Origin: Candidatus Omnitrophota bacterium
Lineage (GTDB): Bacteria; Omnitrophota; Gorgyraeia; Zapsychrales; Fredricksoniimonadaceae
Length of the DNA: 64,000 bases
Direction: 5' to 3'
Assembly (NCBI GenBank): GCA_903944345.1
Contig: CAJARJ010000002.1
Location: forward strand, 65,969-129,968
In this document: one piece after another, positions 3,115 to 64,000 of the stretch
How the letters are laid out: each line of letters starts with the position of its first letter
How positions within the stretch are numbered: the first letter of the stretch is position 1
Notes under the pieces: model-generated
Seen by the model: the letters and a program-made list of their open reading frames with translations, nothing else
The model's database searches: none
What the model was told of the DNA's origin: nothing
Made by a program: the position numbers and the translations under genes

Positions 3115-6100
3115 TCAAATGTCTTTCGTCAACAACGAAAGGGTCATCGCCGGAGCGATCGGCACCGGAACACCGATGTGCGGAATAAACCCGTCGATGG
3201 GTATCTGCTGCAAGTCAGCTTCCGGAAAAGCATCCAATGCTTCACCTGTTTCTTTCAGATCGATACGCCGGCCGTCAAGATCGATACCGCCGGTAGCTTC
3301 CCGATCCTTGTTTATAGCCGTCTTGTCTTGCGGCGGAATCTCGGAAGCATCTGACCCCGCGACAAAAGCTTCTCCGGGCTGCAACGTTGCTGCGGCCACA
3401 GGTTTGGCAAATTCCGGATACACCTCATCATACAAATGCCCTTCACGAATACGGACGTACTCCGCTTCTTCGATCTTGCCTTTCAGGAGCTCTTTCAGAT
3501 AATGCGTTTCTCCCCATGGAGTAGGCGTTGTGTGAACACCCGCCCGGCTCCAGGTCTTGGCAGTCATCCACAGCCGCCCCCCCAGGCTGGAACGCATGGC
3601 GGCCACAGAACCAACCACTTTGGTCGCTGTAAGGATCGAAAAAAGCCCCAGAGAACTTTCTATAATCGCAGTTTCGTCAGGATCCGCTCCCTTCGGAACA
3701 TACACAGGAACATCCACCACGACCGCACTGCCTTTCCATATTCCAAGCCCGAAGAACGCCCCGGTGTTCGGGAAAGACACCTGCCGGACACTCATACGCC
3801 CGCGGTTAAGATCGTGCACCGGAACAAAATTGAGAATAATATCTCCCCGGCCAACATCCGAAGCGTGCCTGGACACAAAGTTATCCAGCGAGTCTCCTTC
3901 GTAAATCGCGGACGGGCTTGTGCCGGAGGTGCCATTGGCCCACAGGCGGGAATAATAATTACGAGTCAGCTCTCCGACGGCCTTCGGGCCGACAATAAAG
4001 ATCTTCCGTGCCCCGGTGCGCCCGAAAGACGACAATCCGGCGATCTTTGAATAGGTTTCGGACAAAAAGAACTTCAACGCGTAATTGATGAAGATAAAAT
4101 CCGCCACCCGGACAACGTAATCCATAAATTGATCCGGATACCAGTTTTGCGGGCCGGCAGAAAACATATAAAGCAGGGTTAAAGGCCCGCCGAAAAGAAA
4201 AACCGCCAAAACAATCAGATCCTTGACCCGGTCAATAACCCAGGGCCGCAGCATGGCCAGGCCGATCTTTTTACCGATCTGCGTCAATTCCTTGTTCACA
4301 TCAGAGGAGAACGAATCCCCCTTCTCATCGGTTCCGGTCATGGCACGCACGGTATCAACTCCACCATCAGCCACCGCCTTTTTGATCTCCTGGAATTTCT
4401 CGGGTGCAAATCGCAGATAAAAACCATCAGTTTCCTGCGCGCCCGCAGACGTCAAGTCCTCGGCTAATTGATAGACCAGACGTTTGGAATGATACATAAG
4501 CTGTATTTCCGATGCGGTTGGCGCCTCCGAAAAGAAATACGTTCCGGTCAGGAAAAACCTCTGATTTTCGGGATCGTCCGCCGGCTTGTCCTTGATCCGC
4601 AGCAAATCCAGAACCATCGCATCCGCACGGGAGGTCATAGCATAAACGTTGCCGACCCCTGCCAGCGCTTTCAATGCCTTGGTGGCCGTTTTTGTCGGAG
4701 ATGTCGCGCCAGACTTGCTGACCACCAGCGCCATGGTGTTTTCGTCCACACGGTAATAGTTCTGGTGCCGTTCAAAAGACTGCACAAACTGGTTGGCCGA
4801 AACAGTCTCGATCTTCAGCCCGTCAACCAGATCATAAAGCAGGTCGAACATCGCCGAGGGGATAATGAAGGAATCATCATAGCCCACCACCAGAAGTCTT
4901 GGCTCTTTGCCGCCGGCTTTAACCTCGCGCAGCTGCCGGGCAAGCCGGCTGGCCGCTTTTCTCAGGTCCGAATCAGCATTGTTCCATCTCTCATTTGCGT
5001 CGGCGACAACGGCTGTGGACATCGACAGCTCCTCGGGAACAATGCGGCTTTCTTTCTTGTACTGGACAGGGGGCGGCGCATGACGCGGATTCTTTTTACC
5101 GTCCACCATCTCCTGTGTAGAATAGAAATCGCCTCTCAGTTCCTCATCCGGGACCGCGAGCCATCCTTTGTTTAAAGGATCGTCTTTCCAGGAACGGATA
5201 TCAAACTTGCCCTCCTGATCATAGGTCAGATTCATCACCTGACCGTCTTGCAGATGAACGATCTCGTCGTACTTCTCTCCGTTTGGCCCGGGGGTCTTCA
5301 GCGTCTGGCTGTCCGATGAGGCGCCGAAAGTCATGTTGGTATGATCCAGCCCTACCGCCACATCCTGCCCGTTATTGAAAACAGTAACACCGTCGGCAAA
5401 TGCCGTGGTCTGTACAAAAATACCATACGTCCCGTCCGCACGCTTGGCAAACTCGCGCACCGCCTGCTCACGGCTTCCGGTAAAATATTTTTTCATGACA
5501 ACCGCTACCCAGAACAAACGCTGCGCCTCGACATCCAGCTTGGAATCCCTCCAGCCCCGCTCCATTCTGGCCAGCACCCTGCCCGCTTCGGAATCCGTAC
5601 CGGACTCCCGGGCCAGTCTTTGGGCCAGACGATCACGGACAGTCAAAAGCATGTCGTACTGCGCTTCCACTCCGGCTTCCGCCGCCTGCTTTCTGGAATC
5701 AAACCACAAGTCACTCAATTCCTTGACTCTCCCGGCAGGCTTGTACCCGGGTCTGGACAAAAGCTGAAGAACTGTTTTCCCGGAACTTACTTTCCGGTCC
5801 ATCTCCTGACGAAACACCTCTCCCAGCGCCTCTTCCTCGCGTTCGGACAAAAGATCTTCCATCGCATTGGACAAGAAGGAGTGGTTCGCAAACACATGTG
5901 CATACCGTACAGCAGTTTTCCAGATCCCCTGGGCCAAAAAAAGATGGATCTGGAAAGGGATGATCGGAGAATCTCCCGGAGGAAGCCCGAAGAGAGCTGA
6001 GTCCAGATGATTAAAGAACGCCTGGGGATATCTATTGAACTGCGCGCGAAAATCGTCATCCACTCCGGCAAACTTTGGCGACACGCGGCCGTTGACAATA

Positions 6101-9100
6101 TATCCGCGCCTGCGAAGTTCCTTAACAATTCTCCTGTAATCGGGGCGAAACCCTCTTTCCAGCACCAAAAGAGGATTAATATCGGCCTTCAGATAAGACG
6201 CCGTAACCTCCCCCTGGAAATAATGATGCAGCAACGCCGGGAAAACCCTGCGCATGGCCGTTGTATCGAGCGTCTGGCCAAACATGCGGGTAACGTTTCC
6301 CCCGCCCATTCTGGCGTTGTCGTTATCTCCATTATGTCCGATCACCACCATCACCTTTCTCCAGATACGCCGTAACACATTATTCTCGTCAAACGCTTCC
6401 ATGACAACCTCTTCCTCGCGGCTGGCATGAGGATGCGTTGCCTTCTTGACCAGAACCCCTCCTGTTGCAAACCGTGTATGATTGAGAATAAAAACCACAA
6501 CCGCACGACCCAGATTGTCTATGGCCTTGGCTTTGGCAGGTATCCCCTTGATGAAGGCCTTGACATTGCGCCCGATCAGATCCGGAGCGAACACCGGACC
6601 GGTTCCTTTCTCCCAACGCAGCCAGCGTTTGGGTTTGAGCATTTTACTGATCCAGGCTTCAGAATTTTCTCCGTCGGAACTATACACCAGTGCCAGCCCG
6701 AGAGCCTGGCCGCCGCGAGCCTCAAGTGTGCGCATCTCACTCTCAAGTTTCGGCATAAGTTCCTGAACCGTTTTGAGAACAACCCCCGGACTATTGTCCT
6801 GCGGAGCAATGCGGCCTCCCCGGACTTCAATGCCGCAACGAACCAGCGCATGACTCAAGGCAGAAGCGTTCACGACCCCCAGAACGGTCATCGCCAGAAG
6901 CGCAGGAATAGCCAGCTGGGTTGCCGCGGCACCTGCGGACAAAACAAGGAAAGTGTGCACGGAGAACCAGCCCAGAGTCAGCAAAGACAACAATCCCCGC
7001 GCCCATAACGGCACGGCATAGGCCGGTTTCGCCTGACGGCTGTTCCCCTCCGGTTTTCCTTCAACCGGAGCGGCCAATATCTCTCCTGTTGCGTCATCCT
7101 GTTCAAGTTCGTGCAGCCCAGACAGAATCTCTGCATTCTCATTGCCCCCCTGCCGGGAGACCGCGGGCCGAGCATCGGCCAAGAGTTCAGCGGCATTCTC
7201 TCTTACGGTAGCCCCCTGACCGGCTGTTGTTGCAGGAGGAACTTCATCACGAAAAACGACCGTTGGATCATCTTTCTCGGGCTCCATTGGAGCTTTTGTT
7301 CCTGTCCTCAAAACTTTCTGCTGTTTTGCGGTACGCTTTTTACCAAAAAGAAATGCTCCGCCCAGAAACAGCAATCCGCCTAACAGAGAATACACCCGGG
7401 GATCCCTCAGGCTGATCTCGGGCCACTCCATCCCGGAAACCCCACCTTTTACTTTATCGATCAGATACTGCCTGAAAGACGTAAACCCGGCCAATTCTTC
7501 GCGGGCAGGCTGTACAAAAGACGGCTCAGCCACAGCTGCGGCGGGAGCCTGCACAGTCGATGAAGCAGGCGGTTGCGTAGTTAGCTCCTTTTGATCCCCC
7601 CCCCGATCTGGAACAGTTACAGGGATCACTGCGGGGGCTTGTTTGACCGGAACAGACAAAGCCGGCAAAGCCCGCAGCACTTCTTCAGGAAGCACCGCAT
7701 TAATTACCAGCGGACGGTACGGAGCAACAGGATCCGCCTGGTCTCCTCCCAAAGTCTTGACCACGCCGCCTTTGCCGTCTTTTCCCCACATGGAGCCGTA
7801 AAATCCCGAATGTTTATACCCTTCGGGATTCAATCTTTTATACGTCGTACGGATCCGTTGAACCGCATGACCGTAGGTCTCCCCGGGCTTTAGTTCGACA
7901 ACTGTTGCCTTTCCGTCGGAAGACGGGGCAAACGCCGCGGCATGCGACATGGCCACAGGCGCCATGGCCAGCGTCACCCCAAGCGCCAGCGAACGAACCA
8001 GTCCGGAAGACAGCATGGCCTGGTCAACCGGCTCAAGCTGCAAAGGCGTACGTAAAAGATCTGAAGACATCGCGCCATCAAGGCCAGTCAAAGGCAATTG
8101 TGTTTCACGGTAAGGCCCAGCTGGCTGATTCAACCCGGAAAGCATCACTCCACCCGAGAAATACTTGCGGGGAATCATCTGCGCATCAACAGGGTCGTTT
8201 TCTTCCTTGATATAGGAATAAACCCCTTCTTCTACCGACCTCAAATACCGTTCAAAAATTTCCTGACGCAATGCCGGAGCAACACTGTCAATGCCGCGCA
8301 CCTTGTTTTGCCCCACATAACGCGTTCCCACTACCGTTGCGGCTTGATGACGTTTGTACCATGTGGCCAACACCAGCGCGTTATAGACCTGCCTTACGGG
8401 AGCAAACAATTCTCCACCATTGACATCCCGGCGTAGAACCGGAAGGATCATCTGACGAAATACATCCGTGTATATCCGGGCCACTCCTTCTTCTTTGGCG
8501 GTCAGCTGCGAATCCTGAAGCAATTGATAGTCGGTATCCGTAAGCACATCTAAAGAGGTATCGGTCACAAAAACGCTGTTATTACGCGTGTAAACAGTTG
8601 CCGTGGATGGAATAATCCACACTTTATTAATATTTCCGGCCGGAATATCTGTTGTTCCATACTCGGCAAACACCCTGCCGTAAACTTCTTTCCAGAAGGC
8701 TGCTCCCAAAGAAGTTTCCGGATAGGTTAAAGAGGCGGCTTTCTGTTTGAGTAAATAATCCTGCTCCATCAACACCTTGCCCATTTCCGTACGAGCAAAT
8801 GTTTCGGGCATAACGCGGTCGCGGCCATCCGGAGAAAGGTTCACCCACATATCCTGGTCGGGAACAGCCAAAGACGCCAGAAGGAACTGACTCAACCGGG
8901 CAATCCCTCCACGCAGATTCTCATTATCGGCCAGCGAAGAGCCTTTATCCACAATCAGATCAAAACGCAACGGATCTGCAGGGTAAACTTTCAACCCCTT
9001 GAGCGTCAACGGATAATAAACCCCCGGGGCCGGTACAGCAGGAAACACAGCCGGCAGACTTCCGACAGACTGTGCCTGCAACAGTTCCGGAAGTATGGCA

Positions 9101-9168
9101 CTCCAGAACACAAAGAACGACACCATACAACAGCACACTCTAAACCATATCGCCCTGCAATCTCTCAT
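3115..9168 (-). CDS. giant (2017 aa) secreted/membrane multidomain protein, paralog-family member 1; hydrophobic leader ending AQS, unassigned conserved N-domain, 3 internal hydrophobic segments, SIS/PGI-like and Ntn-amidotransferase-like motifs, conserved C-terminal tail
   Basis: 6.05-kb uninterrupted ORF. N-domain residues ~35-420 align with ORFs 40793-45073, 45083-49078 and 54725-56869 (WVNLSP, G[RK]xL[LM]xQDYxLKQ, NKVWI[IV]P, PRKYFSGG). Internal VVSKSGATSPTKT (SIS/PGI-like) and VVIGHNGDNDN (HNG-type). C-terminal GGIDLDGRRIDL...DGFIPHIGVPVPIAP tail. Confidence 0.85.
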   Translation of the reverse strand: MRDCRAIWFRVCCCMVSFFVFWSAILPELLQAQSVGSLPAVFPAVPAPGVYYPLTLKGLKVYPADPLRFDLIVDKGSSLADNENLRGGIARLSQFLLASLAVPDQDMWVNLSPDGRDRVMPETFARTEMGKVLMEQDYLLKQKAASLTYPETSLGAAFWKEVYGRVFAEYGTTDIPAGNINKVWIIPSTATVYTRNNSVFVTDTSLDVLTDTDYQLLQDSQLTAKEEGVARIYTDVFRQMILPVLRRDVNGGELFAPVRQVYNALVLATWYKRHQAATVVGTRYVGQNKVRGIDSVAPALRQEIFERYLRSVEEGVYSYIKEENDPVDAQMIPRKYFSGGVMLSGLNQPAGPYRETQLPLTGLDGAMSSDLLRTPLQLEPVDQAMLSSGLVRSLALGVTLAMAPVAMSHAAAFAPSSDGKATVVELKPGETYGHAVQRIRTTYKRLNPEGYKHSGFYGSMWGKDGKGGVVKTLGGDQADPVAPYRPLVINAVLPEEVLRALPALSVPVKQAPAVIPVTVPDRGGDQKELTTQPPASSTVQAPAAAVAEPSFVQPAREELAGFTSFRQYLIDKVKGGVSGMEWPEISLRDPRVYSLLGGLLFLGGAFLFGKKRTAKQQKVLRTGTKAPMEPEKDDPTVVFRDEVPPATTAGQGATVRENAAELLADARPAVSRQGGNENAEILSGLHELEQDDATGEILAAPVEGKPEGNSRQAKPAYAVPLWARGLLSLLTLGWFSVHTFLVLSAGAAATQLAIPALLAMTVLGVVNASALSHALVRCGIEVRGGRIAPQDNSPGVVLKTVQELMPKLESEMRTLEARGGQALGLALVYSSDGENSEAWISKMLKPKRWLRWEKGTGPVFAPDLIGRNVKAFIKGIPAKAKAIDNLGRAVVVFILNHTRFATGGVLVKKATHPHASREEEVVMEAFDENNVLRRIWRKVMVVIGHNGDNDNARMGGGNVTRMFGQTLDTTAMRRVFPALLHHYFQGEVTASYLKADINPLLVLERGFRPDYRRIVKELRRRGYIVNGRVSPKFAGVDDDFRAQFNRYPQAFFNHLDSALFGLPPGDSPIIPFQIHLFLAQGIWKTAVRYAHVFANHSFLSNAMEDLLSEREEEALGEVFRQEMDRKVSSGKTVLQLLSRPGYKPAGRVKELSDLWFDSRKQAAEAGVEAQYDMLLTVRDRLAQRLARESGTDSEAGRVLARMERGWRDSKLDVEAQRLFWVAVVMKKYFTGSREQAVREFAKRADGTYGIFVQTTAFADGVTVFNNGQDVAVGLDHTNMTFGASSDSQTLKTPGPNGEKYDEIVHLQDGQVMNLTYDQEGKFDIRSWKDDPLNKGWLAVPDEELRGDFYSTQEMVDGKKNPRHAPPPVQYKKESRIVPEELSMSTAVVADANERWNNADSDLRKAASRLARQLREVKAGGKEPRLLVVGYDDSFIIPSAMFDLLYDLVDGLKIETVSANQFVQSFERHQNYYRVDENTMALVVSKSGATSPTKTATKALKALAGVGNVYAMTSRADAMVLDLLRIKDKPADDPENQRFFLTGTYFFSEAPTASEIQLMYHSKRLVYQLAEDLTSAGAQETDGFYLRFAPEKFQEIKKAVADGGVDTVRAMTGTDEKGDSFSSDVNKELTQIGKKIGLAMLRPWVIDRVKDLIVLAVFLFGGPLTLLYMFSAGPQNWYPDQFMDYVVRVADFIFINYALKFFLSETYSKIAGLSSFGRTGARKIFIVGPKAVGELTRNYYSRLWANGTSGTSPSAIYEGDSLDNFVSRHASDVGRGDIILNFVPVHDLNRGRMSVRQVSFPNTGAFFGLGIWKGSAVVVDVPVYVPKGADPDETAIIESSLGLFSILTATKVVGSVAAMRSSLGGRLWMTAKTWSRAGVHTTPTPWGETHYLKELLKGKIEEAEYVRIREGHLYDEVYPEFAKPVAAATLQPGEAFVAGSDASEIPPQDKTAINKDREATGGIDLDGRRIDLKETGEALDAFPEADLQQIPIDGFIPHIGVPVPIAPAMTLSLLTKDI

Positions 9169-9207
9169 AACAAACCCCTTTCCATAAAATGAAAAAGCCC
9201 AATAATT

Positions 9208-9250
9208 GTTTCCTCCTCAGGAAACGATCATTGGGCGTCAATGTCCAAAT
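9208..9250. repeat. 43-bp direct repeat copy 1 in the AT-rich leader upstream of the giant ORF; contains palindromes TTTCCTnnnnAGGAAA and TTGGGCn6GTCCAA
   Basis: gtttcctcctcaggaaacgatcattgggcgtcaatgtccaaat; 39 of 43 identical to copy 2 at 9310-9352. Confidence 0.8.
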
Positions 9251-9309
9251 CATCTGTTCTGCCGGGCAACATTGCCCGAGAAACTATTCAACAAAAAAAC
9301 CCAACCAAA

Positions 9310-9352
9310 GTTTCCTACTCAGGAAACGATAATTGGGCATCAGTGTCCAAAT
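9310..9352. repeat. 43-bp direct repeat copy 2 (candidate operator/regulatory module)
   Basis: gtttcctactcaggaaacgataattgggcatcagtgtccaaat; starts 102 bp after copy 1 and keeps the same internal inverted repeats. Confidence 0.8.
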
Positions 9353-9608
9353 ATTTTTGACGAGCGTCTTTACCCGACAAAAAACTGTTCAAAAAGCATC
9401 TTTACTGCTAAATAATAGAACAAATAAACAGCTTTGTCAAGTCCATTGCCTTTGCCGGCAAATTATTCTAAAGAAAATCAAGAAACTGATTTACACGAAC
9501 ACCTGGATCATAAAACATTGCAATATAAATACTTTCACGCGAAGACTTCCAGACATCTTTCCGTCCCATTACTAAAATACATACGGCCTTTTTTATCCCG
9601 AATTGCGC

Positions 9609-9887
9609 TTATGCGGACGAGCAGCCACCAGACTCTTTCATCGGACAAGACGAACAAGAAGTAGAAACCGGGGCCGGTTTTTTATCAGAATCAGGCACAG
9701 TCTTCTTTTTGTAGTCTGTTTCGTAAAAACCCGATCCTTTGAAAATAACTCCGCTGCCGCTGCCAATCAGTCGCGCCAGGCGCGGAGCTTTGCACTCGGG
9801 GCACACGCTCAGCTTGGGTTCGGTGATAGACTGCAAAGCCTCAAAAACATGGCCGCAGGCTGAACATTCATACTCATACGTAGGCAT
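9609..9887 (-). CDS. FmdB-family zinc-ribbon regulatory protein
   Basis: Starts MPTYEYECSACGHVFE with a second CPEC pair, the classic FmdB/CxxC zinc-ribbon signature. Sits directly downstream of dnaJ. Confidence 0.7.
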   Translation of the reverse strand: MPTYEYECSACGHVFEALQSITEPKLSVCPECKAPRLARLIGSGSGVIFKGSGFYETDYKKKTVPDSDKKPAPVSTSCSSCPMKESGGCSSA

Positions 9888-40792: not shown

Positions 40793-43700
40793 TTAAAGAA
40801 GCTTCAATAACTGCCGGAGGTCCTCAACATAAGTCACACCGGAAATCTCCGGATAAAAACCGCGAAACCCCTGCCCAAGACCTCCCCGCGGGATAGCAAT
40901 ATCCGCAAATTCTGTCGACGAGCCTTCTTGCGGATCCAAAGAAATATTCTTGATATCAATTCCGCCATCAATAACCGTCTTTTGCGGATTGACCGGCATG
41001 GCGGCATCGGCCCTGGCCTCTATCACCTGCTGCAGGAATTCAAACGTGGCCTGGGTTTCAAACCCGATAAGGGTCACATTGTCCGGTTTGCCTTTTGAAC
41101 CCTGCGTATTGACCCCCAGGAACCTGACACTGGAAAGCCGCTCATTCTGCGTCAGTTCAAAGTCATTGCCTGCCAGATACTCTCCGCTCTCTGTTACATA
41201 ACGGTACAACTCATCCGCAAAATAAAAAACAAACCCGGGATTCAGCCGGTTGGTATCTATAAAATCCAGCATGGCCAATGCTTTACCCGCATTGGAACTT
41301 GTCATATCGCTGGAACTTGTGCCCGCAGGCCCCATTTTGTAGTAAAGACCGTCCCGGGCTTCTTCTTCACTCATCGGCAGGGCAACAGCCCGCCGAAGCG
41401 CAGGACGCACATCTGTTGAAACACCATCCCGTCTGAACGGCGGCAAAGGGCGCACCGTCACGCTGGCCGCGGCCCCGCTCGTAATCACATTCGCCTCTCC
41501 CCTCATCTCGATCCACGGAGATGCCAAAGCCTCTCCGGCGGACAAGCGCCGGGACACCTCCTCAGGCGTCAGAATTTCTGCCTGCCAGGAATCATCGGTC
41601 AGCCAGGGAAGAACAATATTGGCATTCGTGGATTCCTTGACAATATAAGCCCGCACCGCTTCCAAATAGGCCTGCCCGTCACCCAGCCAGTCTTTCAGGT
41701 TCTGCGGCGACAAGGCCGCGCGCAAAGCCTCCCCGGCAGGCGGCAAGGAAAAAGCATGTGCGATGTTATACGCGTCATCCAGACGAGCCTCTCCTTCCCC
41801 GGAAAAACCTACTTTTGTAGCGCCGCCATCGACGTAAAGGATCAATTTCTGCAAAGCCTGCGGGTGATCCCGCATCTCTTCTCTGATCGCCTGATAAATT
41901 CTTTTTATCTGCTCCTTTCGGGAGTTTCCCGATATAATAGCCACCCGTACGTCCATCCGTAAAAGCAGCATGAACAAATGGGCCAGTTGCCTGTACTCCG
42001 CCAACCCGCCCGAGCCTTTTGGCAAAATCGTCTTGTCGACATCAAACACAAAAGCTCCGGATTCCTTGATCTGAGTCCAGTTGGATACAATATAACGAAT
42101 AATTTTTTCTACCGAGCTCTTCCCATGAAAAAGTCCAAGTTCGCTTTCTTTGCCCCGCACGTCCTCGGAAAAGATCAGTCCGGTTGTTGAAGAAAGGGCA
42201 AAGCCGGCCTGCTGCAGCCCCCGCAGAGTCAAAACCGAATCAATCAGCGCCGTGAACGAGGCCGTTGAACCAAGGCTTGATCCATCGGAAGAACGAACGT
42301 TCAACGCCCGCACACGATGTCCGGCTTGCGCTTCCATCTGTTTGAGTTTCTGAGGAAGCCCCTGAACATCAACATCTTCCTGCACGCCAGCCAGCACATA
42401 ATCCACCAAAGATCCCCGAATTGGCAGCGCTTCGGGTTGCATTTGCGAATACGTAGAAACTTTCTTGAGCGCCTCCGGCAATCGCTCAACCGCTTCCGGA
42501 GAAAGATCCTCTGACACAAGAACCTTGAGGGCCTTCTGGGCTTTGGCTATAGCCTGAGCGCCTCCCGGAACAACCAAAACTCCGCCCACATCGGTTTCAA
42601 TATTACCCGAATAAAACAGAATATCCGCCGAGGAAAGAATATTTTCAACTCTTTCTTCCAGGGGCTTTTTCATGGCTGAGGATGAAAGATACACGGAAAA
42701 ATCATTCAGCCGGTCTGCGGGAAGCCTGCGGGTTGTTTCCTCGATTTCCTGACGAGTGTCCTCGGGAAGAGTTTCTTCCTTGTATTCCATGAGAGCTACA
42801 TCATTAATATTATCTTTCCGAAGCGTTTTGTGCAACAAGGGATCAACCAGCCATAAGCCCAGCATTTCCTCTTTCCTGCTGAAATAATTGAGTGCGGTCT
42901 GGGACGTTAACAGGAGTCCCGTTTTTGTTAACCCCACCATAAACCCTCTGTCCCGAACAGGAAAAACCACTTCGTGCCCTTCCCGCACATCCAGCAAGCC
43001 CGCCAAGGCATCAACCGCGCCCTGCCAGTCATCTTTTTTCCCTTCCAGAACACCTTTTTGTACCATCCCCAATAAAAGAATGGTTCGGATGGGAACATCG
43101 TTCAAAGAAAACTCCCTGTTCCCTCCGGAAGTTCGGGGCAAATCTTTCCAGGTTCTGAGGAAAGCATCAAGATATCCGGCAATCTGCTTTCTCTTGTCAA
43201 GATCCATGGAAAGCGCCAGATTAAAAAGTTTTTTGATATCCGGGTGAAGGTCGCTTCCTTTGCTTGGATCAAACAGACTCTGAACGAGCTTATAAAATTC
43301 ATCCTCGAGAACATTCGGAGACAATGCTTCCGAAAACCGGGCATCGCAAAAGTCGGCCACATAACTGTCCCTGGCCAGATCCACAAGAGCACGCCCCGCC
43401 GCTGTAATCCCCGTGGCGTTAAAAACCCTGGCTCCATAAAACCAGCTGAGCCCGTCTCCGGTCCCACTGGCAATAACTTTAATATTAACATTGGGGCGAG
43501 CCTTGAGTTTTCGCGTCAGCGAACGCTGGCCTCCCTGATGAAAGAAAACGACATTAAGGGGTTTTCCCTCGGAGGCCATCGAATCAATCATGGCCTCCTG
43601 ATCAAAGAAAGAATTGAAAAGCTGTACTGCTTTCTGACTCTCGATCCCGCCCAGCACCGGCTTCTTCGGAGTGCCCTGGCGGACATTCTGTTCGGCATGC

Positions 43701-45073
43701 AGTCGCCACAAAAGAATACGATAAATATCTTCCGCGCGCTTGAGGATCGTCCGGTCCTGGATACTTTGCACCAGCAATGCCGGATGCCCGATGAAAGATC
43801 CGAGATCCTGGCCTTCCACTTTGGCGTGAATACCCAAATTGCTCAATTCATCAACGAGCCGCGCAATGCGTGCATTACGCACGGAAACAAGACGCGCTTC
43901 CTCATCCCTTTCATAAGAAGATGGCTGTGCCGCATCCGCCGGAGGGGCTGTCATTTCCATCCGGACAAGGCTGGCCTGCCCCAAAGACCGCACGGCGGCA
44001 GCGGAATCCGTCTCAACAAGCCGGATATCGCCCAAACGCTCTCCGCCGGAGAAATACCGGCGTGCGACTACGGCGGTGTCAGGCAAAGCGTCCTCCCGGA
44101 TATAATCAAAAACGCCTTGCCGGAAAGCTTCCATATAGCGGGCATAAAGGGCTTCTTTCCATTCCTGCTCGTCGCTCAAAACACCCGACACAAGGCGGCG
44201 ATCCATGTATGTCCCGCCCAGAAACGATCCGCGGATCTGCCCGCGATACCATTTGGCCAGAATAGCGGCATAATAGATCTGGCGCATGGGCGCAAACGCG
44301 GCCCCCTCGTTGATTTCGCGTTCCAGACGAGGAAGGATGACTTTTCGCAGAGCAGACCGGGCGGCCTCACTGCTGCCGGGATTCTGCCCGGACAAAACCT
44401 GATCCTCATCCATCATAACCCGAAGAGTGGCTTGTGTGATATAAACGGCATGTCCTTTGACAAATATCTGCGCTTCCTGCGGCATGATCCAGATCTTGCT
44501 GAAAATATCCACCGGGATATCGGCTCCCGCGGCATTCTCCCTTATCCCGGCATACACCCCGGACCAGAACTCCCGCCCCAAAGCGGTTTCCGGATAGATC
44601 AACGAAGCGGACAGCTGTTTGAGAATATAATCCTGCGCCAGCATGTCGCGGCCAAGAACCGTCCGCCCAAGATCTTCATCAATCATGCGGTCTTTTTCGT
44701 AAGGAGAAAGATTGACCCAAAGCTGATCTTCCGGAACCGTGACCGCGGCCAGAAAATACTGCGCCATGCGTTGTGTTTCGCTGCGGATAAAAGCCTCGTC
44801 CGACTTGTCCTGGCCGGAATCCATAATAAAGTCAAGTGTAAACGGACTCTCGGGGTGGATCACCAGTCCACGGGGAAGAATCGGCGTTCTTGCCCCGGAT
44901 AAATTGATCCGTTCCCCCGGTCGGGGAAGCCCGGAAACAAAAAAGCTTTGAGCGTGTCCCGTTGTTGCGGACACACTCAAAGCCAGAGACAAGGTCACCG
45001 ATAAAATACGACGAACCCGAACGGAGTTAATCAGCGCCGGCATAATCCCTGTCTCCTTGAAAAAACACGGCAA
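40793..45073 (-). CDS. giant (1426 aa) secreted multidomain protein, paralog-family member 2; HAD-like DxDxT module near the C-terminal third
   Basis: Signal peptide ...GHAQS, the conserved N-domain, internal VFDVDKTILP...AIISGNS...YVDGG (HAD-like motifs I/II/IV), and C-terminal GGIDIKNISL...RGFYPEISGVTYVED tail. Confidence 0.85.
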   Translation of the reverse strand: MPCFFKETGIMPALINSVRVRRILSVTLSLALSVSATTGHAQSFFVSGLPRPGERINLSGARTPILPRGLVIHPESPFTLDFIMDSGQDKSDEAFIRSETQRMAQYFLAAVTVPEDQLWVNLSPYEKDRMIDEDLGRTVLGRDMLAQDYILKQLSASLIYPETALGREFWSGVYAGIRENAAGADIPVDIFSKIWIMPQEAQIFVKGHAVYITQATLRVMMDEDQVLSGQNPGSSEAARSALRKVILPRLEREINEGAAFAPMRQIYYAAILAKWYRGQIRGSFLGGTYMDRRLVSGVLSDEQEWKEALYARYMEAFRQGVFDYIREDALPDTAVVARRYFSGGERLGDIRLVETDSAAAVRSLGQASLVRMEMTAPPADAAQPSSYERDEEARLVSVRNARIARLVDELSNLGIHAKVEGQDLGSFIGHPALLVQSIQDRTILKRAEDIYRILLWRLHAEQNVRQGTPKKPVLGGIESQKAVQLFNSFFDQEAMIDSMASEGKPLNVVFFHQGGQRSLTRKLKARPNVNIKVIASGTGDGLSWFYGARVFNATGITAAGRALVDLARDSYVADFCDARFSEALSPNVLEDEFYKLVQSLFDPSKGSDLHPDIKKLFNLALSMDLDKRKQIAGYLDAFLRTWKDLPRTSGGNREFSLNDVPIRTILLLGMVQKGVLEGKKDDWQGAVDALAGLLDVREGHEVVFPVRDRGFMVGLTKTGLLLTSQTALNYFSRKEEMLGLWLVDPLLHKTLRKDNINDVALMEYKEETLPEDTRQEIEETTRRLPADRLNDFSVYLSSSAMKKPLEERVENILSSADILFYSGNIETDVGGVLVVPGGAQAIAKAQKALKVLVSEDLSPEAVERLPEALKKVSTYSQMQPEALPIRGSLVDYVLAGVQEDVDVQGLPQKLKQMEAQAGHRVRALNVRSSDGSSLGSTASFTALIDSVLTLRGLQQAGFALSSTTGLIFSEDVRGKESELGLFHGKSSVEKIIRYIVSNWTQIKESGAFVFDVDKTILPKGSGGLAEYRQLAHLFMLLLRMDVRVAIISGNSRKEQIKRIYQAIREEMRDHPQALQKLILYVDGGATKVGFSGEGEARLDDAYNIAHAFSLPPAGEALRAALSPQNLKDWLGDGQAYLEAVRAYIVKESTNANIVLPWLTDDSWQAEILTPEEVSRRLSAGEALASPWIEMRGEANVITSGAAASVTVRPLPPFRRDGVSTDVRPALRRAVALPMSEEEARDGLYYKMGPAGTSSSDMTSSNAGKALAMLDFIDTNRLNPGFVFYFADELYRYVTESGEYLAGNDFELTQNERLSSVRFLGVNTQGSKGKPDNVTLIGFETQATFEFLQQVIEARADAAMPVNPQKTVIDGGIDIKNISLDPQEGSSTEFADIAIPRGGLGQGFRGFYPEISGVTYVEDLRQLLKLL

Positions 45074-45082
45074 ACTCTTTTT

Positions 45083-48000
45083 TCAGCGTGAAGGAACAAT
45101 CCCCAGCAAGCCGGCCAACCCCGTCATGGGAGTAATCCTGATAATCGTCCCCCTCAATCCGCGAGACTGCTCAACGAGAGTTTCCAACGACTGGCCACCC
45201 AAAACATCCGCGCTCCATTCTCCGCTGCGCTCGACATCCAAAGCGCGGGCATCGATACCACCAGTTCGCTCAACCGCTTGGGAAGCGTCCAGTGCCGCGA
45301 CCAAATCACCCAAAAAAGCTTTCAGGTTTTCACTGCGCTGATAGAGTGTCACAGGAGCTTTCTGCCAGGCCTCAAGCCAGGCATCAAGGGCGCTTCTTGA
45401 CTCGCTGAATTGATCAGCAGGGAAAAAGGCCCTCAAATAATCCGGAAAATACGGCATCATGCCGTCGAGTGAATTAAAACCATGTCTCCTTTGAACATCT
45501 ACAATCGTCTTATAGAAACCTTCCAGCCCGGGCCGGGATTCTTCGGAGAACATAAACCCGTTAAACTGGAAAAGTCCAACGCCATCGGGATTCTCTGTCC
45601 GGACTTTCGTCCGTACCGTCTGGTCAGGCAAGCCCACGGCAATAGCTTGGACGGCCAATATTTTTTCGCGCGCCTCATCTTTCTTCTTTTTCAGGACGTC
45701 CTGGGCCCGGTACAACATCGCCGCCGCTGTAATGGCTCCCGTCTGGGTCTTGTTCAACAACCGGCCCAAAGCCGCCCCGCGAAAAAATCGATCCCGCTCC
45801 AGATCCCAGACGTTCTTCATCTCTCTGAATTTCTGTTCCCAGGAAGACGGATCCTGATAGCTCAACATCAACAGGTTCCCGACCGAATTAGCCTCCCCCG
45901 GGTTCCATGGTTTCATATTATCCGTTGTGCCGCCATCCCGATGATCAAATGCAATCTGGATCGCCATGTTGGGCTGAGGGTTTTCCTCCAGCACTTCATG
46001 CGCCCCCAATGTTCTCTTGTTAAGAATAATATATCCGTTCACCATTCCCAGAAGCGCAATTTTCTGCTCCTCGGTAAAATGCTGTACAAAGAAAAACTGT
46101 CCGGGATAACGGTTTTCGCCTCTGGCCTTGGCCTCTCTGCGTTCACGATTAATCTTGAACTCTATATCCCGGTATTTGCGAGCCAGCTCACGACTGGGAT
46201 CTGTATCCTGAAGATTTCCCTGGATCACAACTGAATACCCCATATCCACCAGCATCGGAATCAGCCAATAGGGGTCGAATGCATTCTTTTCATCCACCAG
46301 CCGGCGGGCGTTCCCCAAAATAGGGTTATCCGTGTTCACATCCACATACAAAGCCGCACGAACCTGATCCGTGGCTGTAAAGCCGGCATTCAGAGTCTCA
46401 TTGGCCCATTTAAGAATGACCGCAAGCTCCATATTGTTGAGTGCTTCAACAGATCTTCCGTACTGCTCTCTGGCCCTGGCCTCAAGCAGTTCTCCGTTAG
46501 CTGTTCTGACCTTCATCTGATTGTAGCCTTGCGCGGTTCTTTTCTTGAGACGCGCAACATCTGTGGGAGACAAATAATCGATATCCGCAGTTGCTGCGAT
46601 CTCTCCTTCCTGTTGAATGCGACTAAACGTCTGTTCAAGAAACGCCGCTATCTGTTTAGGATTGTCTCCATTGGTCGCCGCCGTCAAAGGAAGCCCATAA
46701 AGAGTACTCATGTGCGCAGCATGACTCCGGCTGACACCCAGTCCGGCATCGGCCAGCCTCAGCCCTCCCCAGGTAAGATTCCCAAACAGGCTGGAACCCG
46801 CTGCAGGCCCTCCCTGCTCCGGATCCCACCATCTGTCAATGTAAGCCGCTCCGGAAAACTGCGCCGGAAGGTGCATCAAATTTTCTGCCAGATGTCTGGC
46901 CTGTTCCAAAGGCAGTGTCTGGGCGTTAAGAATGGTATGCGTCGAGTCCAGGATCACCACATTGTCCCGGGACAAGCCCGGCAACTCATGCCCTCTGATG
47001 GCCTGCACAAGAGGTGCCGCCTGTCCATCCTGGGTATGTACTATAATTAAAGGGTAACTTCCGTCAGCCTTCCGGTCCCTGATCTGCTGACGAGACAAAA
47101 ACGCCTCGGAGGCCAACGCAAAAAACGCGACCGACTCTTCCATAGTGACGGGATTATTCGGCGCTTCAGCAGATTTATACATATATAATCTGTTGGAGAA
47201 CTTGTTCCATTCGTCACGGATATAATATCCTGTGACCCCGGCCCGGTTTTCACCTTCCTCAACAATGACCGGAACCCGCTCGGATCCCACTTCAATATCA
47301 AATCTGTCAACTTCATGCAAATTCTTCACTCCGAGATTCCTTCTTCCCGAACCGTCATCATCATAATATAGCGGTTCTCCCCCGGGAACTCCGGTATCAA
47401 ATCGCATGGCGTACTTAAGCTGAATCGACCGAACCCTGGCTCCCAGCCGTGTCAGAAACATGGAATGCGTCTCATTAACAGGGCCCAATCCTCCTTGTTT
47501 ATAATCCATCTCAACTGTAGCGAAATAATACGTTATATCGTTCAGAAGAGGCATGCTTTCTTTGACAAACGCATCTGTATACCGACCCGTCATCAACAGC
47601 ATCATATTCATGAGTCTCGTCCTGTCTTTTGCAGGAACCGACTCGATCGCATCCATCAACCCGTTGAGCTGCTCTTGCGGCAATAGCGCCACAGCCTTGG
47701 TGACAGCCCACATCCCCTGAACAGGATTCCCCCGGATAACCTCAACATCGTACTGAAGAGAATACCGTGTCATCAGTTTTTTGAACTCTTCCTTGAATCT
47801 GCGTACTGAGAGCCTTGCCAAGCCCTGAAACTCGACTAAAATTTTCTCAAACCGTCCGATTGCGTTCCACTGCTCTGTTGTTTCCGGAACAAACTGCGCC
47901 CTGACAGCTTCGTCAATAATCTGGGAACCGTCCACCGCTTCAAGGCTGGCCGCGATCCTTTGTAAAGGACGTTCTGCAAAAGCCTCGACTTCCTGTGCCT

Positions 48001-49078
48001 GGGCCGCGTCCTGGCGAATATCCCCAACCGCAAACCCGCCGGAGAAATACTTCCTCGGGAAATCCTCACCGGTGACAGGATCGGTTTCTTCCTTTATATA
48101 GTTAAAAACACCTGTCCGGTAAGCCGCCATATACTGCTCGTAGATCAGTTCCTTGTTCTTCGGATCACTTAAATCGATCCCGGCAACCTTGCTCTTTCCG
48201 GAATAAACTTTGTTAAGAACGCTATCCTTGAGCGCCTTCTGGTACCACTGCGCCAGAACCAGCGCATAAACAACCTGACGCAGGCGGGCAAAATTGGCCC
48301 CTTCATTCACTTCCTGTTCAATGGCCGGAACGATCAGCTCGCGTAAAATATTCTTGGTCAGTTCTTCTTCGGGAGTACCTGTTGCAACGGCATTCTCCTG
48401 CTGGGCCTGATGGTCCGCATCCAGCATGACCTTCATTTCCGCTCCGGTTATAAAAACAGTATTACCTTTCTCGAACACCCGGGCCCGCTGAGGCACAATC
48501 CAGACTTTATTGAACGCATCAACCGGAAGATCCGTCACACCAAATTTTTCCCAGGCCTGTGCATATATTTTTTGCCAGAAATCATGCCCGAGATTCTCTT
48601 CAGGATAAATCAGAGAAGCCGTCAGCTGTTTCAGAACATAATCCTGTGCCAACAAATCCCGGCCCAACTCTGTCCGAATCAATGCTTCGGGAACAATCCG
48701 GTCTGATTCGACCGGCGAAAGGTTGACCCACAGATCCTGTTGCGGAACAGTAAGCGCAGCAAGAAAGTAGTTAATCATACGCTGGGAGTCATCACGCAAC
48801 TCCGCTTCACTTACAAGCAAAGAACCGGGGTCAACAATAAAATCAAGATCAAGCGGACGGGAGGGATCAATTGTAATTCCGCGCAACAAAACAGGTTCGA
48901 TCGCTGCTGAAAAACGCACCATCTGTCCCGGTGCAGGCAGCACCTCTCCGGTTACCAGAGCCTGGGCGTAACCAAGAGCAGGCTCACAACAAAGAATAAC
49001 CGCTAATAGAAATGCCAGAAAACGCCGCATGAAATGTCCTCCCGGTTTTGGATGGTTACGAAGAACGTGATTAAACAA
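45083..49078 (-). CDS. giant (1331 aa) secreted multidomain protein, paralog-family member 3; possible GT-B glycosyltransferase/glucan-phosphorylase-like module
   Basis: Signal peptide ...GYAQA and the conserved N-domain. Internal DYKQGGLGPVNETHSMFL and GGTTDNMKPWNPGEANSVGNL weakly recall GT-B/GT35 motifs. C-terminal GGIDARALDV...RGLRGTIIRITPMTG tail. Sits 9 nt upstream of member 2. Confidence 0.85.
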   Translation of the reverse strand: MFNHVLRNHPKPGGHFMRRFLAFLLAVILCCEPALGYAQALVTGEVLPAPGQMVRFSAAIEPVLLRGITIDPSRPLDLDFIVDPGSLLVSEAELRDDSQRMINYFLAALTVPQQDLWVNLSPVESDRIVPEALIRTELGRDLLAQDYVLKQLTASLIYPEENLGHDFWQKIYAQAWEKFGVTDLPVDAFNKVWIVPQRARVFEKGNTVFITGAEMKVMLDADHQAQQENAVATGTPEEELTKNILRELIVPAIEQEVNEGANFARLRQVVYALVLAQWYQKALKDSVLNKVYSGKSKVAGIDLSDPKNKELIYEQYMAAYRTGVFNYIKEETDPVTGEDFPRKYFSGGFAVGDIRQDAAQAQEVEAFAERPLQRIAASLEAVDGSQIIDEAVRAQFVPETTEQWNAIGRFEKILVEFQGLARLSVRRFKEEFKKLMTRYSLQYDVEVIRGNPVQGMWAVTKAVALLPQEQLNGLMDAIESVPAKDRTRLMNMMLLMTGRYTDAFVKESMPLLNDITYYFATVEMDYKQGGLGPVNETHSMFLTRLGARVRSIQLKYAMRFDTGVPGGEPLYYDDDGSGRRNLGVKNLHEVDRFDIEVGSERVPVIVEEGENRAGVTGYYIRDEWNKFSNRLYMYKSAEAPNNPVTMEESVAFFALASEAFLSRQQIRDRKADGSYPLIIVHTQDGQAAPLVQAIRGHELPGLSRDNVVILDSTHTILNAQTLPLEQARHLAENLMHLPAQFSGAAYIDRWWDPEQGGPAAGSSLFGNLTWGGLRLADAGLGVSRSHAAHMSTLYGLPLTAATNGDNPKQIAAFLEQTFSRIQQEGEIAATADIDYLSPTDVARLKKRTAQGYNQMKVRTANGELLEARAREQYGRSVEALNNMELAVILKWANETLNAGFTATDQVRAALYVDVNTDNPILGNARRLVDEKNAFDPYWLIPMLVDMGYSVVIQGNLQDTDPSRELARKYRDIEFKINRERREAKARGENRYPGQFFFVQHFTEEQKIALLGMVNGYIILNKRTLGAHEVLEENPQPNMAIQIAFDHRDGGTTDNMKPWNPGEANSVGNLLMLSYQDPSSWEQKFREMKNVWDLERDRFFRGAALGRLLNKTQTGAITAAAMLYRAQDVLKKKKDEAREKILAVQAIAVGLPDQTVRTKVRTENPDGVGLFQFNGFMFSEESRPGLEGFYKTIVDVQRRHGFNSLDGMMPYFPDYLRAFFPADQFSESRSALDAWLEAWQKAPVTLYQRSENLKAFLGDLVAALDASQAVERTGGIDARALDVERSGEWSADVLGGQSLETLVEQSRGLRGTIIRITPMTGLAGLLGIVPSR

Positions 49079-56958: not shown

Positions 56959-57717
56959 CTAATTTGTTGACACGTATCTGTTTCTGACAAAACAAAGCCC
57001 CGCCACAAAAAGAATGTAATACCCGCACACAATGCCGGTGGAAACCTGCGGCAGCGCCCAGACGCCACCCGGGACCAGACTGAAAAACCAGGCAGCGGCT
57101 ACCAGAAGATTGAGCGCAATATGCAGACTCCCCGCCACGAGCTCTCCCAGCGGAGAAAAAAGACTTCCTGTCATAACCACTCCCACTCCCAGCGCAGTAA
57201 CCAGCGTGGCCAAAGGCACCACCGGCAAATTGGCCAGCAGTCCAACAGGGGTCAAGTTCCCGAAAACATACGCAGTAATCCCGGCCGATCCGGCCCAGGC
57301 CGCCAGGGAAACAATCAGGCCTTCTCTGAGCCAGCGCAGTAAAGATGAACCGCCTTCTGTCCCTACCCACGGCAGAAGAAACATTGGAGAAACAAGAACA
57401 ATAGAAAGGACACAAATAAAAGAGAGCTGAAATCCAACATCAAAAAGCTGACGCGGATCTGCCAATGCCATAGCCAGCAATGCAAACCCGACCGTATTGA
57501 GCATGTCCTGATCGCGCTCGATCACAAAAGCCAGCAAAAAAACCGTACTCATCCACGCAGCGCGTACCACCGGCGGTTCTCCTCCAACCATAAATGCGTA
57601 AAACCAGGCCAGCAGCAAAGACAAAACAAAACTTGCCCGGCGGCCAACCCTGAGCGCACCCAGAAGCATGACAAATATCGAAACCAGCAGCGTAATATTG
57701 AGCCCACTGATGGCCAC
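56959..57717 (-). CDS. ComEC/Rec2 competence-domain membrane protein; probably the 3' remnant of a comEC gene split by the adjacent integrated element
   Basis: Polytopic Competence-domain-like sequence. The upstream end coincides with the GC drop and the recombinase 3' end, and the recombinase frame reads ~60 aa into this gene. Confidence 0.5.
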   Translation of the reverse strand: MAISGLNITLLVSIFVMLLGALRVGRRASFVLSLLLAWFYAFMVGGEPPVVRAAWMSTVFLLAFVIERDQDMLNTVGFALLAMALADPRQLFDVGFQLSFICVLSIVLVSPMFLLPWVGTEGGSSLLRWLREGLIVSLAAWAGSAGITAYVFGNLTPVGLLANLPVVPLATLVTALGVGVVMTGSLFSPLGELVAGSLHIALNLLVAAAWFFSLVPGGVWALPQVSTGIVCGYYILFVAGLCFVRNRYVSTN

Positions 57718-59312: not shown

Positions 59313-59524
59313 TGCCTGCCTGTTAGTTTTTTAAGCTTCTTTAAGTCTTCTTCTGTCCAATACCGATAATTATTCATCGGGTCACGCTTTGCTTTAGGCA
59401 CTTTTCCGGCATTCTCCCAGTTGTAATACGTCCACCGGGTTATGCAAAGCTCGCGCTCAATGTCTTCAATATAGTATCGTTCTTCCATACCGTATACTTT
59501 ACTATAGTTTGTAATAGTAGTCAA
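59309..59524 (-). CDS. small MerR/excisionase-family HTH protein (candidate recombination directionality factor)
   Basis: 71 aa; a central helix-turn-helix is plausible (ELCITRWTYYNWENAGKVPKAKRD); overlaps the recombinase start by 4 nt. Confidence 0.45.
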   Translation of the reverse strand: MTTITNYSKVYGMEERYYIEDIERELCITRWTYYNWENAGKVPKAKRDPMNNYRYWTEEDLKKLKKLTGRQ

Positions 59525-59532
59525 TCCATAGA

Positions 59533-62733: not shown

Positions 62734-62742
62734 AACCTTCTC

Positions 62743-63516: not shown

Positions 63517-63530
63517 TGCCCTTCCTTTCC

Positions 63531-63999: not shown

Positions 64000-64000
64000 C

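Follow-up and report, generated by a model that had tools for sequence, protein, structure and literature searches.

The 64,000-nucleotide window analysed here (the whole stretch of Omnitrophota DNA under study, to which all coordinates given without a locus label refer) contains on its minus strand an intact open reading frame (ORF; 3115..9168) coding for 2,017 aa plus a stop codon, and residues 778 to ~1890 of its product are a highly divergent homologue of glucosamine-6-phosphate synthase (GlmS/GFAT), as both fold and collinearity show. We consider it reasonably probable that this giant protein is a self-processing, membrane-held glutamine amidotransferase of the N-terminal nucleophile (Ntn) type, with GlmS architecture and a phosphorylated acceptor, set in an exported Omnitrophota scaffold.

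All of the best database relatives of the 2,017-aa protein in a homologue search came from Omnitrophota, and orthologues P0001 and P0003–P0005 are full length and collinear with it (38–40 % identity, 98–99 % coverage). An earlier note on this DNA had described the gene as the largest of a set of paralogues; it is indeed the longest of four ORFs in the window that share an N-terminal domain (N-domain). The strings quoted in that note were all located in the translation (VYSLLGGLLFLGGAFLFG at aa 592, LLSLLTLGWFSV...VLGVV at aa 726–766, VMVVIGHNGDNDNARMGGGN at aa 939, ALVVSKSGATSPTKTATKAL at aa 1480 and ANGTSGTSP at aa 1744), as was its Pro/Ala-rich spacer (aa 497–560, 34 % P+A). From C778 onwards, the order is glutaminase, linker, first SIS subdomain (SIS1), hairpin, second SIS subdomain (SIS2) with tail, a disordered stretch and a C-terminal motif. 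The parts of the gene are as follows.

3115..9168 (−): whole gene; intact ORF with collinear full-length orthologues
9073..9168 (−): Sec-type signal peptide, aa 1–32; hydropathy 1.93, ..LQA|QS, family A-x-A-Q
8134..9021 (−): Omnitrophota-specific N-domain, aa ~50–345, predicted to be exported; >1,000 proteins sharing it, AlphaFold
7933..8004 (−): weakly hydrophobic segment, aa 389–412, spanning uncertain; hydropathy 1.6
7339..7398 (−): transmembrane segment, aa 591–610, followed by basic KKRTAKQQK; hydropathy
6841..6996 (−): hydrophobic pair, aa 725–776, two transmembrane helices; hydropathy 1.72 and 1.91
6832..6837 (−): Cys778-Gly779, predicted Ntn nucleophile, with the proposed cleavage site R777|C778; alignment and conservation
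5134..6837 (−): class-II (Ntn) glutaminase domain, aa 778–1345; conserved residues, hhalign, Foldseek
4444..4983 (−): SIS1, aa ~1396–1575, with loop S1484-K-S-G-A-T1489; conservation and GlmS alignment
4039..4302 (−): helical hairpin between the SIS subdomains, aa 1623–1710, predicted membrane anchor; AlphaFold, hydropathy 2.28
3514..4023 (−): SIS2 and conserved tail, aa ~1716–1885 (..TWSRAGVHTTPTP); fold match and conservation
3118..3291 (−): C-terminal superfamily motif, aa 1960–2017 (GGIDLDGRR...IDGFIPHIGVPVPIAPAM..); sequence conservation, disordered in the model

Relationship to GlmS and extent of the family

A Pfam scan of the full protein returned no match at E ≤ 1, including GATase_2/6/7 and SIS (PF01380). 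The only meaningful NCBIfam matches were two GlmS models (E values 4e-7 and 9e-6) over aa 894–922, which correspond to the 'HTRWATHG...HPH' stretch of GlmS (HTRxATxG..HPH), with bit scores below the cut-offs of these GlmS equivalogs (TIGR01135/PRK00331; 24.5 vs 418 and 28.7 vs 381). Some 30 homologues share the C-terminal 1,240 residues at 22–40 % identity, and a profile of this family returned human GFAT1 and E. coli GlmS as its best matches among PDB sequences (E value 1e-3), aligning the conserved Cys with the catalytic residue of GFAT1 and 'VSKSGAT' with 'LSQSGET'. With hhalign, the alignment to E. coli GlmS was collinear from Cys1 through SIS1 (E values 1e-4 to 6e-4); a global hhalign comparison of the SIS region with GlmS did not succeed, and the local one supports SIS1 only.

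An AlphaFold2 model of aa 774–1973 built from 30 sequences (mean predicted local distance difference test score 83.5, predicted template-modelling score 0.82) reproduced the two-domain arrangement of GlmS, an Ntn glutaminase followed by a double SIS. When this model was compared with the PDB using Foldseek, the top 31 matches were all full-length GlmS/GFAT structures (E values 2.5e-16 to 5.5e-14), aligned over 1,100–1,160 columns with target-normalised template-modelling scores of up to 0.75 (E. coli GlmS, 2j6h_A), while isolated SIS-domain proteins ranked after them (E values ~1e-7 to 1e-6). The homology to class-II/Ntn amidotransferases and SIS domains proposed in the earlier note is thus strongly supported by NCBIfam, the family profile, hhalign and Foldseek. 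Its HNG and SKSGAT motifs lie on invariant or near-invariant columns of the family and align with GlmS motifs. That such motifs are chance matches in a protein with no relation to amidotransferases or SIS domains might be argued from the silence of Pfam and from a single-sequence PDB search that yielded nothing relevant, only spurious myomesin matches. This explanation was rejected, since the Foldseek match over the whole module (E value 2.5e-16), the collinear profile alignments and the invariant motif positions refute it, and we give it practically no credence.

The family was gathered from the full-protein homologue search and by scanning 1.84 billion representative proteins in HMMER using a profile of the module, with clusters defined at 50 % identity. 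At E ≤ 1e-3 the scan returned 755 clusters, 217 of which also reached E ≤ 1e-30. Canonical GlmS was absent from the 755 matches, indicating a family that is distinct and distant. Those members whose source is named include metagenome-assembled genomes of Cyanobacteriota and of a Methylococcaceae bacterium, as well as transcriptomes of the dinoflagellate Biecheleria and the haptophyte Diacronema. Stand-alone proteins of 790–1,580 aa also belong to the family (P0166, P0203, P0206, P0209, P0211, P0214, P0226, P0236, P0246, P0240 and P0252), and at least nine clusters, of cyanobacterial origin and from a dinoflagellate transcriptome, start with 'MCGN...'; one stand-alone variant, P0252, bears EF-hands. 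A literature search on membrane-bound GlmS in Omnitrophota found nothing relevant. The result is a sizeable family of GlmS-fold amidotransferases lacking a Pfam or NCBIfam model, with at least 755 clusters in Omnitrophota, cyanobacteria, algae and some proteobacteria.

The glutaminase site and proposed self-processing

The hydrophobic pair 725–776 ends two residues ahead of Cys778, and the sequence 'R-C778-G-I' found two residues past this last transmembrane segment resembles the GlmS start 'M-C-G-I'. In the AlphaFold model, Cys778 stands directly ahead of the first β-strand (model residues E6–14), as in Ntn hydrolases. Among aligned homologues, C778 and G779 are each conserved in 48/48, R818-G819 in 55/55, H897 and R899 in 57/57, T902 in 56/57, N946 in 57/58, G947 in 56/57, D948 in 57/57 and D1066 in 77/77. 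The hhalign equivalents of this set in GlmS are Cys1, Arg26, Arg73, Thr76, Asn98-Gly99 and Asp123, which are the nucleophile, oxyanion-hole and glutamine-binding residues; 'GTYG' at aa 1246 aligns with 'GAYG' at position 155 of GlmS. A Cys at the start of the first strand together with Asn-Gly, Arg and Asp, as expected of a class-II amidotransferase domain, is present (C778, N946-G947, R899 and D1066). The domain is split by two mainly helical insertions (aa ~960–1060 and ~1085–1243). Comparison of catalytic residues with GlmS, a check recommended in the earlier note, found both the glutaminase set and the SIS1 phosphate loop conserved.

In nearly all fused homologues, a hydrophobic segment ends 10–45 residues before the Cys, and in the Omnitrophota fusions no Met directly precedes it, so that a free amino terminus requires proteolysis. 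The stand-alone relatives, by comparison, start Met-Cys-Gly, and their Cys would be N-terminal after Met removal. In class-II amidotransferases, which count among the Ntn hydrolases (MEROPS C44), autocatalysis strips off the residues ahead of the Cys (PMC9140057). From this trimming and from the relatives that begin with MCG, we infer self-cleavage at R777|C778; by analogy, an Ntn-type cut at this position likely frees Cys778 as the N-terminal nucleophile. With its Cys 777 residues into the chain, the enzyme probably has to cut itself free of its exported, membrane-spanning front half in order to work.

SIS subdomains and the acceptor site

In SIS1, the fold is accompanied by a Ser/Thr-rich phosphate loop even though Pfam PF01380 stays under its threshold. 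The loop, S1484-K-S-G-A-T1489, aligns with S347-Q-S-G-E-T352 of GlmS and is well conserved in ~152 family members (S1484 90 %, S1486 93 %, G1487 99 %, T1489 88 %), as are G1429, S1433, N1459, D1516 and E1548. SIS2 and the tail match the isomerase domain of GlmS in fold (Foldseek), and across the same members R1717 is conserved in 95 %, R1774-G1775 in 85–89 %, Q1796 in 93 % and T1881 in 99 %. The string ANGTSGTSP, put forward in the earlier note as a weaker SIS motif, does sit within the true SIS2; however, it is not conserved in the family and its resemblance to S-x-S-G-x-T is fortuitous.

The isomerase site may have changed. In E. coli GlmS, E488, H504 and K603 are the isomerase/synthase catalytic residues. 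The first SIS2 strand of GlmS leads into a helix that holds K485 and E488; the family consensus there is S-(R/K)-L-x-A, and in its tail the family has 'S-R-A-G-V-H-T-T' where GlmS has 'N-L-A-K-S-V-T-V'. When positions were equated by secondary-structure register and a weak alignment, no conserved acid was found in the family at the E488 position, nor were counterparts of H504 and K603. Together with the conserved SIS1 loop, this suggests that a phosphorylated ligand is bound and that the classical isomerising chemistry on fructose-6-phosphate (Fru-6-P) is not retained. The acceptor chemistry is probably non-classical, because no clear counterparts of the GlmS isomerase residues emerged and orthologues of the giant gene occur alongside a normal glmS. 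The suggestion in the earlier note that the domains may be repurposed may thus be partly right for the sugar site, whereas the glutaminase site is intact.

Membrane segments and orientation

Hydrophobic segments comprise the signal peptide (aa 6–30, with an AxA-type site near A32), a weak segment at aa 389–412, a transmembrane segment at aa 591–610, the pair 725–747/748–776 and the hairpin. The earlier note listed three hydrophobic stretches, but there are more. The signal peptide has a basic n-region and a hydrophobic core, and an N-terminus of the same type is present in all four paralogues of the window. Segment 389–412 has a stronger counterpart in most orthologues, and AlphaFold gives only short, low-confidence helices in this place.

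The hairpin (aa 1623–1710) is modelled by AlphaFold as helices of 48 and 32 residues with a hydrophobic tip (1648–1672 and 1685–1702). A hydrophobic span occupies this position in 148/150 family members, stand-alone ones included, with K/R-rich flanks. As it also occurs in members without a signal peptide and is flanked by K/R-rich sequence, it most likely inserts into the membrane from the cytoplasmic face. The hairpin is also the part that would, most likely, hold the cleaved enzyme at the membrane. The positive cluster KKRTAKQQK suggests that the C-terminal side of transmembrane segment 591–610 is in the cytoplasm, and this cluster, the cytoplasmic substrates and the stand-alone relatives all favour a cytoplasmic module. 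We lean, by a small degree, towards the enzyme module of the fusion proteins facing the cytoplasm. Membrane hairpin, intact glutaminase site and apparently altered acceptor site together suggest an unknown glutamine-dependent amination at the membrane.

A superfamily with a common N-domain and C-terminal motif

The N-domain (aa ~50–345) is common to >1,000 large Omnitrophota proteins with very different enzymes in the middle, among them triose-phosphate isomerase, aldolase, phosphoglycerate kinase, pyruvate phosphate dikinase, UDP-glucose pyrophosphorylase, kinases, PP2C, methyltransferases and others. It has 33 invariant columns across 40 sequences, and AlphaFold is confident over aa ~50–340; Foldseek found no match to it in the PDB (best E value 0.36), and it has no Pfam family. 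A LysM-like domain considered at aa ~415–470 was dropped, as neither Pfam nor Foldseek returned a match. The 'GGID...GFxPxI' motif ends all four window paralogues and is nearly invariant in 40–74 superfamily members, whichever enzyme they carry. The product of 3115–9168 has all three marks of the superfamily, i.e. a signal peptide, the ~300-aa N-domain and the C-terminal motif. The other paralogues in the window are as follows.

40793–45073 (−): N-domain paralogue, no transmembrane segment after the signal peptide
45083–49078 (−): N-domain paralogue, no transmembrane segment after the signal peptide
54725–56869 (−): N-domain paralogue, no transmembrane segment after the signal peptide

These three smaller paralogues, like 58/120 sampled superfamily members, have a signal peptide and no later transmembrane segment, and such proteins, with their 'cytoplasmic' enzymes, are predicted to be exported. 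The paralogue at 45083–49078 has a weak match to starch synthase (GT5). PADLOC defence models matched none of the four window paralogues. Omnitrophota have been described as host-dependent, and as having long proteins rich in signal peptides or transmembrane segments and in metabolic domains (PMC10066038; bioRxiv 10.64898/2026.06.07.730766). The giant protein offers a way into a superfamily of exported Omnitrophota proteins that is large and undescribed, and this bears on how host-dependent nanobacteria live.

Hypervariability of the giant gene

Comparison of the window (3115–9168) with the syntenic locus L003 (8001–13847) revealed that the giant proteins are just 39.6 % identical (18–70 % per 100-residue interval), whereas seven flanking proteins are 95.5–99.5 % identical and the flanking DNA 86–91 %; DNA similarity fades ~1 kb into the giant gene and returns 61 nt past its stop codon. 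Loci L023 and L024 show the same pattern, with 35.7 % identity between the giant proteins against 88–96 % for the ANTAR, Amt, P-II and type-III glutamine synthetase neighbours and 73 % for the GATase gene; a small protein encoded downstream (40 % identity) diverges along with the giant gene. A third pair of loci is less extreme (63 % for the giant protein, 52–84 % for its neighbours). This hypervariability suggests diversifying selection or allele replacement. Despite the divergence, the glutaminase catalytic residues are retained. To be among the fastest-evolving genes of its neighbourhood and yet keep every glutaminase residue is unusual for a metabolic enzyme, and the fast evolution suggests that interaction or conflict is involved.

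Proposed mechanism and alternative explanations

In the explanation that we favour, the protein is a chimera. Its front half (aa 1–777) consists of a Sec signal peptide, the exported N-domain specific to Omnitrophota and a further three or four hydrophobic stretches, and its back half (aa 778–~1890) of an Ntn glutaminase and two SIS subdomains with two helical insertions and a hydrophobic hairpin. In the manner of Ntn hydrolases and of class-II amidotransferases with a propeptide, the precursor would cut its own chain at the R777–C778 bond, leaving a glutamine amidotransferase held at the membrane by its internal hydrophobic hairpin. This enzyme would hydrolyse glutamine and pass the ammonia to a phosphorylated, sugar-like acceptor at the SIS domains, in a reaction probably other than the classical conversion of Fru-6-P to glucosamine-6-phosphate.

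Several observations weigh against this explanation. The Pfam GATase and SIS models do not match the protein, and the assignment of SIS2 residues was made by secondary-structure register and weak sequence alignment, not by coordinate superposition. To our knowledge, a 'propeptide' of 777 residues with an exported domain and transmembrane helices is without precedent in class-II amidotransferases. Regarding orientation, the topology check advised in the earlier note, carried out family-wide by hydropathy and a crude positive-inside count, gave a mixed result. Should segment 389–412 span the membrane, an even number of hydrophobic segments would precede Cys778 and the module would be extracytoplasmic. 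Finally, the GGID motif is shared with paralogues that have a signal peptide and no transmembrane segment, which argues that it normally acts outside the cytoplasm.

The earlier note had reasoned that an embedded amidotransferase has no usable N-terminal Cys and may be pseudo-enzymatic, a view that overlooked the internal Cys778-Gly779, which is invariant and aligned with Cys1 of GlmS. In its developed form, this alternative holds that the module has lost glutamine hydrolysis on account of its internal Cys and that it acts as a sensor, binding a ligand (glutamine or a sugar phosphate) or regulating, coupled to the exported N-domain. The distance of 777 residues between the Cys and the start codon, the lack of evident equivalents of the GlmS isomerase residues and a sequence too divergent for Pfam would all suit it, as would the nitrogen-regulation neighbourhood of one clade. 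Pseudo-enzymes, however, normally lose the residues needed for catalysis, while here the whole glutaminase set is invariant or nearly so across homologues that are 20–40 % identical, with the glutamine-binding and hydrolysis residues conserved in ≥56/57 in spite of very fast evolution. Moreover, stand-alone homologues begin Met-Cys-Gly like active enzymes, and autocatalytic removal of the residues before the Cys is known in the class (PMC9140057). Because the glutaminase site is fully conserved in a fast-evolving protein, we regard the sensor as a distinctly unlikely alternative, and the pseudo-enzyme inference as probably wrong on the pattern of residue conservation. An opposite alternative, that the protein is the bona fide glucosamine-6-phosphate synthase of the organism and simply membrane-tethered, draws on the fact that no known structure or sequence family comes nearly as close as GlmS, on the conserved phosphate-binding SIS loop and on the position of the giant gene near glmS in two orthologous loci. 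Yet these same two loci (those of P0001 and P0005) hold a typical 610-aa glmS, which makes the giant gene an additional paralogue and not the housekeeping enzyme; a role as the sole GlmS of the organism was rejected on this ground. NCBIfam scores of 24–29 bits against cut-offs of 381–418, a family profile that, at E ≤ 1e-3, misses canonical GlmS in a set of 1.84 billion proteins, the missing conserved acid at the E488 position and a hypervariability unlike that of housekeeping enzymes add to the case against it, and we think this alternative very improbable.

A different possibility is that the N-domain and C-terminal motif form a scaffold for secretion or delivery, that the hydrophobic segments and enzyme module function outside the cytoplasm of the producer, and that Ntn self-cleavage frees the enzyme at the surface or in a host or prey. 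Its main support is the extreme hypervariability inside conserved flanks, to which may be added the signal peptide and exported N-domain, the 'cytoplasmic' enzymes carried without a transmembrane segment after the signal peptide by three window paralogues and 58/120 superfamily members, and the C-terminal motif that all these proteins share. Host dependence of Omnitrophota and their long multi-enzyme proteins with signal peptides or transmembrane segments (PMC10066038; bioRxiv 10.64898/2026.06.07.730766) would agree with such an effector, as would a type II secretion system (T2SS)/secretin cluster adjoining orthologue P0001 and the even number of hydrophobic segments before Cys778 if 389–412 is counted. 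Against export stand the strongly hydrophobic helices, which ought to stop transfer and anchor the protein in the inner membrane of the producing cell, and the homologous hairpin in stand-alone proteins without a signal peptide, which are necessarily cytoplasmic; furthermore, glutamine and phosphosugars are cytoplasmic substrates and the basic cluster after segment 591–610 favours an odd count. We therefore judge an exported effector unlikely. A bolder version, in which the superfamily would be an enzyme-cargo delivery scaffold of host-dependent Omnitrophota and Cys778 self-cleavage would release a membrane-inserting amidotransferase onto a host or envelope target, seems to us decidedly doubtful. 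Were it true, the target could be a membrane-embedded phosphorylated acceptor reached via the hairpin beside the SIS site, and the hypervariability within near-identical flanks would reflect an arms race.

Gene neighbourhood, 5′ leader and orthologous loci

The neighbours of the giant gene in the window are ordinary chromosomal genes (accD-like, DUF1015, Zn-ribbon protein, dnaJ, dnaK, grpE, hrcA and clpB), and the P0002 locus is syntenic with the window. The Zn-ribbon gene (9609–9887, −), located between dnaJ and the giant gene, encodes a 92-aa FmdB-type protein (MPTYEYECSACGHVFE...) with 95.7 % identity in L003. Upstream of the giant gene lies the following feature.

9169..9440 (−): 5′ leader with promoter-like TTGACA-17-TATTAT and two 59-nt direct repeats; folding and L003 comparison

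The near-consensus promoter precedes the repeats (9192–9250 and 9294–9352, −), each of which would form a long hairpin followed by a U-run, giving two tandem terminator-like structures (fold z-score of the leader −6.3). Its identity to the L003 leader is 90 %, but that of the flanking DNA is in any case 86–91 %. Rfam yielded no match to it beyond sub-threshold miRNA noise, and a scan for the repeat in species-representative genomes, a set outside which the window genome lies, gave 16 scattered single matches in unrelated phyla, approximately as expected by chance. We infer a link between the leader and regulation of the giant gene.

The genes of P0001 and P0005 are preceded, three genes upstream, by a canonical 610-aa glmS (L002 4503–6335 and L022 4902–6734, respectively), in the order glmS, DUF5674, TP_methylase, giant gene. 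This glmS product carries MCGIIG..., LKLKEISY, KHGP and DQPRNLAKSVTVE, and that of L002 does match Pfam GATase_6/7. A cluster of secretin, T2SS-E/F and pseudopilin genes follows the giant gene in L002. At the loci of the more distant family members P0012 and P0015 (L023 6529–21790 and L024 6563–21132), the giant gene is positioned between a GAF-GAF-ANTAR regulator and amt, which is followed by P-II, type-III glutamine synthetase, GATase and NAD synthase (NadE) genes; further upstream, the two loci differ in sequence. The nitrogen-assimilation context in this clade fits a glutamine-linked role. A hydrophobic protein of 91–101 aa (..GIWGLGPWAL..N..LGF..G.F....YN..) is encoded directly downstream of the giant gene in the four loci listed below; the window and L003 lack it.

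L021 7143–7448: small downstream protein
L023 13807–14106: small downstream protein
L024 14057–14335: small downstream protein
L025 14977–15252: small downstream protein

Elsewhere in the window, GC content falls from ~0.52 to 0.41–0.43 in 58000–64000, and a large serine recombinase gene (57549–59312; Resolvase, Recombinase and Zn-ribbon) lies at the edge of this drop; the 58000–64000 segment may be an integrated mobile element.

Comparison with known systems

The closest known relatives of the module are GlmS and GFAT (EC 2.6.1.16; TIGR01135, PRK00331; PDB 2j6h, 6r4h), with which it shares the order Ntn glutaminase, SIS1, SIS2 and tail, the overall fold and inter-domain arrangement (template-modelling score 0.75 to 2j6h_A), equivalents of the nucleophile Cys, R26, R73, T76, N98-G99 and D123, and the S-x-S-G-x-T loop. 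It differs in its structural-alignment identity of just 9–10 %, in three insertions of ~400 residues in total, one of them a membrane hairpin, and in an internal Cys behind 777 residues; in addition, the giant gene is hypervariable, and orthologous loci contain a normal glmS as well. The double-SIS fold and phosphate-binding Ser/Thr loop are also common to SIS phosphosugar isomerases and deaminases (NagB-II, 8fdb; AgaS-like, 3odp/3i0z; Lmo0035, 2aml), although these lack the glutaminase domain and membrane hairpin of the giant protein.

As regards processing, the propeptide-bearing class-II amidotransferases (MEROPS C44), such as PurF of B. subtilis, whose propeptide has 11 residues, and the large subunit of glutamate synthase, resemble the giant protein in that their catalytic Cys is not the first translated residue. 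The propeptides known to us in this class are a few to a few dozen residues long, whereas the 777 residues preceding the Cys of the giant protein hold a signal peptide, a folded exported domain and transmembrane helices. If the proposed self-cleavage is true, Ntn propeptide processing would extend from a handful of residues to the whole half of a membrane protein and would provide a simple example of a bitopic fusion protein that is split after translation. Were the protein instead a delivery scaffold, the release step at Cys778 would be functionally analogous to the autoprocessing of large clostridial or MARTX toxins.

Within the same phylum, the long multi-enzyme proteins of Omnitrophota follow the same theme as the giant protein, a signal peptide or transmembrane segments combined with metabolic enzymes, which in the surveys include starch synthase, phosphoglucomutase, kinases and methyltransferases (bioRxiv 10.64898/2026.06.07.730766; PMC10066038). 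The word 'amidotransferase' is absent from bioRxiv 10.64898/2026.06.07.730766, and the passages of this preprint that were searched mention neither a shared N-domain nor a C-terminal motif. The surveyed proteins are ≥10,000 aa long, whereas the giant protein is 2 kAA long and belongs to a discrete superfamily defined by its N-domain and C-terminal motif.

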